From NCBI RefSeq assembly GCF_001677475.2, contig NZ_CP015229.1: 64,000 bases of DNA, one strand, 5' to 3'. Below, in pieces: positions 22,039 to 23,347 of the stretch (position 1 is the stretch's first letter; every line of letters begins with the position of its first letter). Made by a program: the position numbers and the translations under genes. The notes under the pieces are model-generated. The model was not told the DNA's origin and made no database searches. It saw nothing but the letters and a program-made list of their open reading frames with translations. The DNA is from Escherichia coli. Lineage in GTDB: Bacteria > Pseudomonadota > Gammaproteobacteria > Enterobacterales > Enterobacteriaceae.

Positions 22039-22530
22039 TTAGTGAGTAATACATATGAAGCGTGGTGTCCTGCCTGTAGAGAATACGTAGTTATAATCAT
22101 TTTGACGCGTAACATAATAATTAATTGAAGTGTCTGCTTTTATGAAGAAATCAGAAGTGATATTTTCAAGGACTTCATCGCTAATGTTATCATCTTTTTG
22201 TATTTTTTGGATTTTAACTGTGGTGAGATAAACGGTATCACGGAATTTCTTGTATGTAAAACTCACATATCGGCGGATGAAGCCCATCTTTTTTCCATCT
22301 ACCGTGTATGCACCCGTGAGATACATGTTTCCTGTGTTATTTTCAGAAATCATATTTAACGAAAAATATTGATCCATTTTTGTATGATCGGTGAAATTAA
22401 TAACATGGGCATTACATGATATGTTTTGCTCTGCTGGTTCATTAGCATGATGAAACGCAATATGGCTCAGAATTGCTGCAATAAAAGCACATAAAATTAT
22501 TCCCGCAAACAGAAAATATCTTTGAGTCAT
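22039..22530 (-). CDS. Hypothetical membrane-anchored/exported protein, possible ToxS-like partner
   Basis: 163-aa ORF with N-terminal hydrophobic segment, directly downstream of the ToxR-like regulator with a 4-bp gap. Confidence 0.5.
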   Translation of the reverse strand: MTQRYFLFAGIILCAFIAAILSHIAFHHANEPAEQNISCNAHVINFTDHTKMDQYFSLNMISENNTGNMYLTGAYTVDGKKMGFIRRYVSFTYKKFRDTVYLTTVKIQKIQKDDNISDEVLENITSDFFIKADTSINYYVTRQNDYNYVFSTGRTPRFICITH

Positions 22531-22534
22531 ATGA

Positions 22535-23347
22535 TTACTCCGCTTTATAATAGAGAGAGTTGCAATTATTTGGTGATTCAGAGTTTAACATTTGACTACA
22601 GGTGAAAGCATAAAACCCGCTCATGCTATCATTTGTTGCAATGTAAATGTAAGGATGTATTTTGCAGTTGACTTCCATTTTCTGCAATTTTTCAATAATC
22701 GGTGATAGCATGTCTACGGAATTAAAGTATTTATTATCATAGAAATAACTGCATCCTTCCTGAGTAGGGTGTTGAGCATAATTTGAGAAAGCATCTATTT
22801 TTTTTATAGTGTGGGATTTGCTTTGAAAAGCCATATCGAAAAAATAAGAAGATATATACACTATCCCCCATGCTGCAAAAAAACAAACTATAAGCAATGT
22901 ATTCTTTGTAGTAAATATACTTTTTGCAATGTGATTTTCATTTATATTTCCAGTGTGGGTGCCATTCTCTTCACTCTCAACACTTTCATTCTCATTGTGA
23001 TTATTGTCGAGAACAGTTATGTTGATTTCTTCATTGATTTTGAAGCCTTTCCGTGGCACCGTTCTGATAACATCATTAAATATCGTCGCTGAGCTGATTT
23101 CACGAAAGGAACGCCTTATCATCGATATATTTTGATATAAAGTGTTGGTTGCGACTTCGGCACTGCTATCGCTCCAGACTTTTTCAAAGAATTGATTGTG
23201 TGACACGACACTATAAGCGTTATCTAAAAGTAACTTTAAGCATTTTCCCGCAGGATAAGTGAGTATCACTTCCTCTGATGTAAGGAGTGATGTTAACTTA
23301 TTAGATGATGAGTTGAATCTTACTTCATCATTTATAATGTAGATCAT
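22535..23347 (-). CDS. ToxR/CadC-like membrane-bound transcriptional regulator (N-terminal winged-helix domain, one TM, periplasmic domain)
   Basis: 270-aa ORF; OmpR/PhoB-type wHTH signature (TNTLYQNISMIRRSF...TVPRKGFKI), then a hydrophobic helix (LLIVCFFAAWGIVYISSYFF). Confidence 0.6.
   Translation of the reverse strand: MIYIINDEVRFNSSSNKLTSLLTSEEVILTYPAGKCLKLLLDNAYSVVSHNQFFEKVWSDSSAEVATNTLYQNISMIRRSFREISSATIFNDVIRTVPRKGFKINEEINITVLDNNHNENESVESEENGTHTGNINENHIAKSIFTTKNTLLIVCFFAAWGIVYISSYFFDMAFQSKSHTIKKIDAFSNYAQHPTQEGCSYFYDNKYFNSVDMLSPIIEKLQKMEVNCKIHPYIYIATNDSMSGFYAFTCSQMLNSESPNNCNSLYYKAE

Follow-up and report, generated by a model that had tools for sequence, protein, structure and literature searches.

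The grvA-fidL gene pair and its chromosomal setting

We analyzed a 64,000-nt stretch of Escherichia coli DNA (contig NZ_CP015229.1 of assembly GCF_001677475.2; the window, in what follows), in which an initial annotation had marked a ToxR/ToxS-like pair of membrane regulator genes lying inside a genomic island. Both open reading frames (ORFs) that it claimed, encoding proteins of 270 and 163 amino acids and separated by 4 bp, were present on the minus strand, and we identify them as grvA and its fidL-like neighbor (Table 1). The 3' end of grvA reads GCG-GAG-TAA, with the TAA at 22537..22535, and the ATG of fidL starts at 22530, leaving a gap of 4 nt; because the GGAG lies within the final grvA codons, it is able to act as the Shine-Dalgarno sequence (ribosome-binding site) of fidL. 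A simple scan around the operon revealed no terminator-like site between or after the two genes. As read from the sequence, co-transcription and coupled translation of grvA and fidL are likely. The pair has a G+C content of 34%, compared to 47% for the whole window, and comparison with the alleles of strain Sakai gave dN/dS values of 0.11 and 0.12 for the two genes, indicating purifying selection.

Table 1. Features of the grvA-fidL operon and its upstream region, in window coordinates (aa, amino acids; AF2, AlphaFold2 model; SDR, short-chain dehydrogenase/reductase)
Feature	Position	Strand	Basis
fidL-like gene (ECs_1273 ortholog), encoding a membrane-anchored FidL/YqeJ-family protein of 163 aa with a periplasmic barrel	22039..22530	-	ORF with ATG
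Periplasmic eight-stranded lipocalin-like barrel of the FidL-like protein, aa 37-162; Cys39 in first strand, Cys160 in last	22045..22422	-	
Membrane anchor at the N-terminus of the FidL-like protein, aa ~5-26	22453..22518	-	hydrophobicity, AF2 helix
grvA/fidL junction: GGAG, TAA stop, 4-nt spacer, fidL ATG	22531..22541	-	read from sequence
grvA ortholog, 270-aa bitopic ToxR-family transcription factor	22535..23347	-	ORF with ATG; Sakai orthology; Trans_reg_C; AF2 model
GrvA periplasmic domain, aa ~185-270; beta-beta-alpha-beta-beta-beta order, four conserved cysteines	22538..22795	-	
GrvA transmembrane segment, hydrophobic core aa 150-169	22841..22900	-	mean Kyte-Doolittle 2.03
Cytoplasmic OmpR/PhoB-type winged-helix DNA-binding domain of GrvA, aa 1-113	23009..23347	-	
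Intergenic region separating grvA from the divergent KduD-like SDR gene, 680 bp, AT-rich (32% G+C)	23348..24027		
Candidate sigma-70 promoter of grvA-fidL, TTCACA-18 nt-TATACT	23425..23454	-	consensus scan, 10/12
TAAGAATAATCTTG, candidate RcsB/RcsAB box immediately upstream of the predicted -35	23467..23480	+	consensus match

The GrvA protein of the window was identical to Sakai ECs_1274, annotated as grvA, at 264 of 270 residues (98%), and its FidL-like partner was identical to ECs_1273, annotated as FidL-like, at 157 of 163 (96%); both alignments were gapless and full length. Sakai and the window share the lengths of the two proteins, the 4-nt junction, the chromosomal site and the neighboring genes, and differ by the six substitutions in each protein. 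RefSeq annotations of the locus name the products "winged helix-turn-helix domain-containing protein" and "FidL", "FidL-like" or "YqeJ family protein". The order of genes in the window is pgaABCD, dgcT, pdeT, fidL, grvA, an SDR oxidoreductase gene, a chaperone-usher fimbrial operon (24965-31589), the gene for a 207-aa protein, then, from 32980 onward, the two-partner secretion (TPS) genes for TpsA and TpsB and a "lipid" operon of acyl-carrier and ketosynthase genes, followed by ycdU and serX. This order agrees with those of Sakai, EDL933 and strain MEW, bearing out the earlier placement of the pair in an island beside fimbrial, TPS and lipid operons; the island is O-island 47 (OI-47; PMC8565820). 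We conclude that the pair is the already described GrvA/FidL of E. coli OI-47; the initial annotation had recognized the system correctly, and the system is not new.

The window belongs to a non-O157 lineage, and the complete genomes matching it best, at ~97.7% over 25 kb, are those of baboon, guinea-fowl and pig isolates. The SpLE1 element, present after serX in Sakai, is absent at serX in the window. K-12 has no island at the same site (K-12 1094245-1095846) and carries there IS3D and the remnant of a ymdE pseudogene, a state which suggests that K-12 lost the island by a deletion mediated by the insertion sequence, not that island-bearing strains gained it by insertion; by its position, ymdE may be what remains of the last gene of the island.

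Anatomy of the two proteins

Pfam found a single domain in the 270-aa protein, Trans_reg_C at residues 25-103 (E=4.1e-11), as expected from the OmpR-type winged helix that had been proposed for it, and its best match by sequence in the Protein Data Bank (PDB) was the DNA-binding domain of Vibrio cholerae ToxR (E=3.8e-7). The AF2 model of GrvA, built from 72 family members, had a mean predicted local distance difference test score (pLDDT) of 83.9. It showed the winged helix with confidence at residues 1-113 and contained a helix at residues 147-178 that included the sole strongly hydrophobic segment of the protein (150-169), preceded by an Asn/Glu-rich disordered linker (residues ~119-145) with pLDDT below 50; residues 190-268 were modeled as a small C-terminal alpha/beta domain of the ToxR/VtrA fold, which agrees with the periplasmic domain ascribed to this protein at the outset. 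Four cysteines of this domain, C199, C228, C250 and C262, were invariant across the 72 sequences. As modeled, GrvA has one transmembrane helix between its DNA-binding domain and the small periplasmic domain, with an orientation in the membrane that we infer. Assignment of GrvA to the OmpR/PhoB response regulators was rejected: Pfam gave no Response_reg match, and the response-regulator models of NCBIfam aligned via their DNA-binding ends only, with scores far below their cut-offs.

In the FidL-like protein the AF2 model (pLDDT 95.4) showed an N-terminal helix at residues 2-29 followed by eight strands and one short helix. Like GrvA, this protein had a single strongly hydrophobic segment (residues 6-24, mean Kyte-Doolittle value 2.51), so the transmembrane segments claimed for both proteins were found; with the barrel following its hydrophobic helix, the second protein appeared membrane-anchored as had been stated. 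Its family was less easily assigned. A Pfam-A scan of the 163-aa protein gave no match, an NCBIfam search, the family having no model there, gave none, and the best hit of a PDB sequence search had a meaningless E of 0.13. Because the Pfam-A scan was empty, the call of a FidL/YqeJ family member at the sequence level is based on phmmer, BLAST and precomputed annotations: BLASTP aligned the protein with K-12 YqeJ at 23% identity (E=1e-18), the precomputed Pfam annotations were PF27292 (YqeJ_C) and PF15941, and an exhaustive phmmer search found 83 cluster representatives at E of 1e-3 or better. (A word-indexed homolog search yielded 8 near-identical proteins, and the exhaustive search of representatives was used instead.) When the representatives were aligned with K-12 YqeJ, C39 was invariant and C160 was at least 90% conserved. 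The link to VtrC and ToxS came from fold comparison alone.

The region upstream of grvA

The divergent intergenic region upstream of grvA had a mean column identity of 98% among three strains. The predicted promoter of the operon within it was nearly identical in Sakai and MEW, with a single substitution in Sakai, located in the -35 hexamer. The consensus scan found 7 promoter-like sites compared to 11.7 expected from shuffled sequences, showing no enrichment; as there was no excess over shuffles, the promoter is called a candidate only. The sequence TAAGAATAATCTTG, which would fit control of grvA by RcsB, agreed with the RcsAB-box consensus TaAGaatatTCcta (PMC4325325) at 11 of 14 positions, the five conserved bases all among them; by itself this match was not significant, since one or more turned up in 29 of 100 shuffles. 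It was the sole such site in the window and was invariant in Sakai and MEW.

Two other non-coding regions deserve mention. Between 23540 and 23700 the AT-rich grvA-SDR intergenic region contains a G+C-richer block of ~160 bp, ~97% conserved between strains, which might represent either a regulatory region or what is left of a gene. A repeat was rejected, the block being single copy in E. coli genomes, as was a structured RNA (no Rfam match at gathering thresholds; folding energy not better than for shuffled sequences, z=0.48). Farther along, a 1.39-kb AT-rich region (31590-32979, 33-34% G+C) separates tpsA from the divergent 207-aa gene and fimbrial operon and is the obvious place in which to seek binding sites of GrvA or H-NS.

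Distribution of the locus among E. coli genomes

A megablast search of 5426 complete E. coli genomes with the grvA-fidL region (1601-nt query) found the locus in 410, with one copy per genome, adjoining pdeT and dgcT. Carriers included isolates from pigs, poultry (guinea fowl), fish, an otter, a baboon and a gull, and some strains named as enterotoxigenic E. coli (ETEC). The locus thus reaches animal and environmental isolates beyond O157:H7, O55:H7 and O145:H28, the lineages to which a 2024 review had restricted it. Judging from the pathotype definition, many of these carriers are unlikely to have the enterocyte effacement locus (LEE); if non-O157 carriers are without LEE, then LEE cannot be the conserved target of GrvA. 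Some alleles, for example that of strain MEW (locus L001, 20636-21457), encode a GrvA of 273 amino acids compared to 270 in the window. In genomes of that type the 1601-nt query aligned to 1610 nt, i.e., with ~9 extra bases, for which the Asn/Glu-rich linker is a plausible site.

Function and proposed mechanism

The regulator has a winged helix with no receiver domain and a periplasmic alpha/beta domain of the ToxR/VtrA fold, and the adjacent, co-oriented downstream gene encodes a membrane-anchored protein with a lipocalin-like barrel. We consider it very probable that the grvA-fidL operon encodes a two-protein co-component signaling system of the ToxR/ToxS (VtrA/VtrC) type, with a mode of working that we infer. 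The same classification was made by Kinch et al. (2022), who described FidL as lipocalin-like, with a disulfide joining the first and last strands of the barrel, and noted that the periplasmic disulfides of the transcription factor are conserved (PMC9214523). They also obtained a confident, VtrA/VtrC-like model of the GrvA-FidL complex and showed that the periplasmic domains of YqeI/YqeJ and PsaE/PsaF form dimeric complexes when co-expressed (PMC9214523). The 4-nt gap in the window agrees with their remark that most such pairs overlap but grvA and fidL do not (PMC9214523).

We propose the following course of events. The winged helix of GrvA would lie in the cytoplasm, joined by the linker and one transmembrane helix to the small disulfide-bonded domain in the periplasm, and FidL, presumably co-translated from grvA mRNA, would be anchored by its N-terminal helix with the lipocalin-like barrel exposed to the periplasm. 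By analogy with VtrA/VtrC and ToxR/ToxS, the FidL barrel may pair with the periplasmic domain of GrvA and stabilize it; it may also bind a ligand that is small and hydrophobic, for instance a cue of the bile or lipid type, and such binding would alter the oligomeric state or the activity of the membrane-held GrvA DNA-binding domain. For the ortholog in Sakai and TW14359, the literature shows a pathway in which RcsB activates transcription of grvA and GrvA lowers GadW and GadE, so that ler and LEE are derepressed and glutamate-dependent acid resistance falls. Judged by position, the pair might plausibly also control the adjacent fimbrial and TPS-lipid operons directly, and this local output may be the ancestral one.

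Reviews cover the functional studies of GrvA by Tobe et al. (2005) and by Morgan et al. (2016). According to these reviews, RcsB activates grvA through the grvA promoter in a bicarbonate-sensitive pathway (PMC8565820, PMC6393859); GrvA raises the expression of ler and LEE, increases adherence, and represses glutamate-dependent acid resistance in exponential phase (PMC10877973, PMC8565820, PMC6393859); and the effect on LEE is indirect, arising because GrvA lowers GadW and hence GadE (PMC10877973, PMC8565820). GrvA is one of the island-encoded regulators that tie envelope and bicarbonate signals, via RcsB, to attachment and acid resistance in enterohemorrhagic E. coli; in fold class, its partner FidL falls with the bile-sensing VtrC and ToxS.

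Several points weigh against this picture. Proteins of the FidL/YqeJ family have no known ligand (PMC9214523), the Pfam-A scan of FidL was empty, and we found no experiment on E. coli fidL itself in the literature examined. GrvA is reported to affect gadE and ler indirectly, and the reviews consulted describe no direct binding site (PMC10877973, PMC8565820). Finally, deletion of the whole of OI-47 in TUV93-0 reportedly raises type III secretion instead of lowering it (PMC10877973), a result not predicted by a simple role of GrvA as a LEE activator.

Alternative explanations

The pair could act mainly as a local regulator, with GrvA binding the AT-rich intergenic regions of the island and activating the fimbrial and/or the TPS-lipid operon; its LEE and gad effects in O157:H7 would then be secondary. 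From the genomic context we regard this as possible but less likely than not; it adds to the co-component architecture and does not exclude it. Such a regulator would resemble MarT/FidL activating misL and PsaE/PsaF activating psaA. The GrvA clade retains adhesin neighbors in different genera. In Pseudocitrobacter, the SDR, fimbrial and TPS genes that adjoin a pair with 51% and 49% identity to GrvA and FidL are those of the window, at 74-89% identity; the intervening 207-aa protein is 55% identical there, and the other flank carries unrelated genes. On a metagenome contig, a pair with 49% and 48% identity adjoins an E. coli common pilus (ECP/Mat) fimbrial operon. Three Kosakonia species and one Buttiauxella carry a family member oriented divergently, 0.66-1.3 kb from TpsB (TpsA in Buttiauxella) and the same lipid operon; compared to the window, their lipid-synthesis genes are 61-87% identical and TpsB 46-50%, the regulators only 25-29%. 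The regulator pair is thus far more diverged between genera than the genes that surround it.

A scan of genomic context, with one genome per species, returned 79 loci; in 31 of them, from at least 12 genera, a FidL-like gene accompanied the regulator. Of these 31 pairs, 19 had an adhesin-secretion gene (a chaperone-usher or ECP usher, TPS or autotransporter gene) within 10 kb, usually at a distance of 0.1-4 kb. For a random 20-kb window the background is roughly 5-10%, a figure reckoned from about a dozen usher operons per genome rather than computed. The survey recovered Salmonella marT-fidL next to misL, which MarT activates (PMC9214523), and the presence of the locus in animal isolates that in many cases are unlikely to have LEE (some are named ETEC) also fits a local target. 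Against this, joint residence in an island does not imply that genes regulate one another, 12 of the 31 pairs had no adhesin gene nearby, the 19 adhesin-linked loci are phylogenetically related and so are not independent, and the reviews of the GrvA regulon that we consulted report no effect on the OI-47 fimbrial, TPS or lipid genes (PMC10877973, PMC8565820, PMC6393859). The survey gives circumstantial support to regulation of its neighbors by the pair.

A broader version of this idea, in which GrvA/FidL and FidL/YqeJ-type pairs at large are at root local switches for adjacent adhesin clusters and the LEE and acid effects in O157:H7 are a later addition, seems to us a little more doubtful. More speculatively, the FidL barrel might sense a lipid made by the neighboring synthesis operon, an idea prompted by the related pairs that sit directly beside that operon in Kosakonia and Buttiauxella. 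Members of the family adjoin fimbrial, TPS, autotransporter or lipid clusters far more often than we would expect by chance, and these neighbors offer a guide to the direct targets and to the ligand.

It is rather unlikely, in our judgment, that FidL merely stabilizes GrvA against proteolysis, in the manner of ToxS and without sensing, so that the input is purely transcriptional (RcsB, bicarbonate). Protection of ToxR by ToxS is established for that family. The candidate RcsAB box at 23467-23480 and the conserved periplasmic cysteines of both proteins, which point to a module sensitive to folding or stability, are compatible with such a role, and RcsB control of grvA is the sole input reported so far (PMC10877973, PMC8565820, PMC6393859). 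Two observations argue in the other direction: the barrel shares its fold with the bile-salt-binding proteins VtrC and ToxS (PMC9214523, PMC13042144), and the Pseudocitrobacter barrel protein is only 49% identical compared to 74-89% for its neighbors, which fits adaptation to a ligand or partner better than a scaffold.

We consider it highly improbable that the pair is degenerating and without function in this strain: although it was acquired horizontally, is AT-rich (34% G+C) and probably silenced by H-NS, and although the island is deleted in K-12 and a few genomes have truncated copies, all family-invariant residues, cysteines included, are kept and the promoter region is ~98% conserved, and a pseudogene was rejected on the basis of the intact, full-length frames and the dN/dS relative to Sakai of 0.11-0.12.

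Other features of the window

The genes from 36881 to 52326, for TpsB, AcpS, an SDR, a FabZ-like protein, an acyl carrier protein, an aminomethyltransferase-like protein and a double ketosynthase, followed by ABC-transporter genes, form one operon. In the Kosakonia and Buttiauxella loci (L011, L031, L035 and L038) the FidL-type regulator pair always adjoins this lipid operon, and the genes from the SDR to the double ketosynthase are conserved. To our knowledge, the product of this lipid pathway is uncharacterized.

On the other side of the pair, the pgaA frame (16027-18282, minus strand) encodes 751 amino acids compared to 807 (2424 nt) in K-12, Sakai and the closest genome, PapRG-06-5, and stops ~170 nt before pgaB instead of 9 nt; this suggests either a C-terminal truncation of the poly-N-acetylglucosamine (PGA) export porin or a sequencing error. 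The ~2.7-kb gap between putP and efeU, where strain MEW has only ~650 bp, contains a 447-aa ORF (4916-6259, minus strand); PapRG-06-5 annotates it as a hypothetical protein, and NCBIfam gave no match. Rfam gave three matches above gathering score, all on the minus strand: the Ysr251 antisense RNA over phoH (11851-12044), the tRNA serX (53506-53590) and the small RNA ES056 (59191-59282), just upstream of the csgD ORF (58485-59135).

Comparison with known systems

YqeI/YqeJ of the E. coli type III secretion system 2 (ETT2) region and MarT/FidL of Salmonella pathogenicity island 3 (SPI-3) are paralogs within the family and share the order of domains, the four periplasmic cysteines of the regulator and the cysteine pair of the barrel. 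They differ from the window pair in several respects. Identity to the window proteins is 32% for YqeI and 23% for YqeJ, and the 4-nt spacing of grvA and fidL contrasts with the overlapping frames of yqeI/yqeJ and marT/fidL (PMC9214523). In a neighbor-joining tree of 51 family regulators GrvA stood apart from the YqeI/MarT group and grouped only with Pseudocitrobacter and metagenomic proteins, each ~50% identical to it.

With VtrA/VtrC of Vibrio parahaemolyticus the identity is 9%, with no detectable sequence relationship, and VtrA, unlike the GrvA family, is without periplasmic disulfides according to Kinch et al. (PMC9214523). VtrC binds bile salts and controls type III secretion system 2 (T3SS2). 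In comparison with ToxR/ToxS of Vibrio, the DNA-binding domain has 27% identity and the remaining parts 5-8%; the regulons differ, and the periplasmic model of GrvA has no C-terminal helix (AF2 model; also PMC9214523).

The initial annotation had also likened the pair to CadC-type sensors. CadC has a periplasmic sensor of ~300 amino acids and no ToxS-like partner gene, whereas the periplasmic part of GrvA comprises only ~85-90 amino acids. A CadC-type sensor was ruled out by the presence of the ToxS/VtrC-like partner gene, by the absence of a CadC C-terminal domain in the Pfam search, and by an NCBIfam CadC score of 20.3 bits compared to a cut-off of 400. The likeness to CadC therefore ends with the DNA-binding domain, whereas the analogy with ToxR/ToxS is supported in sequence, in predicted fold and in the layout of the operon.

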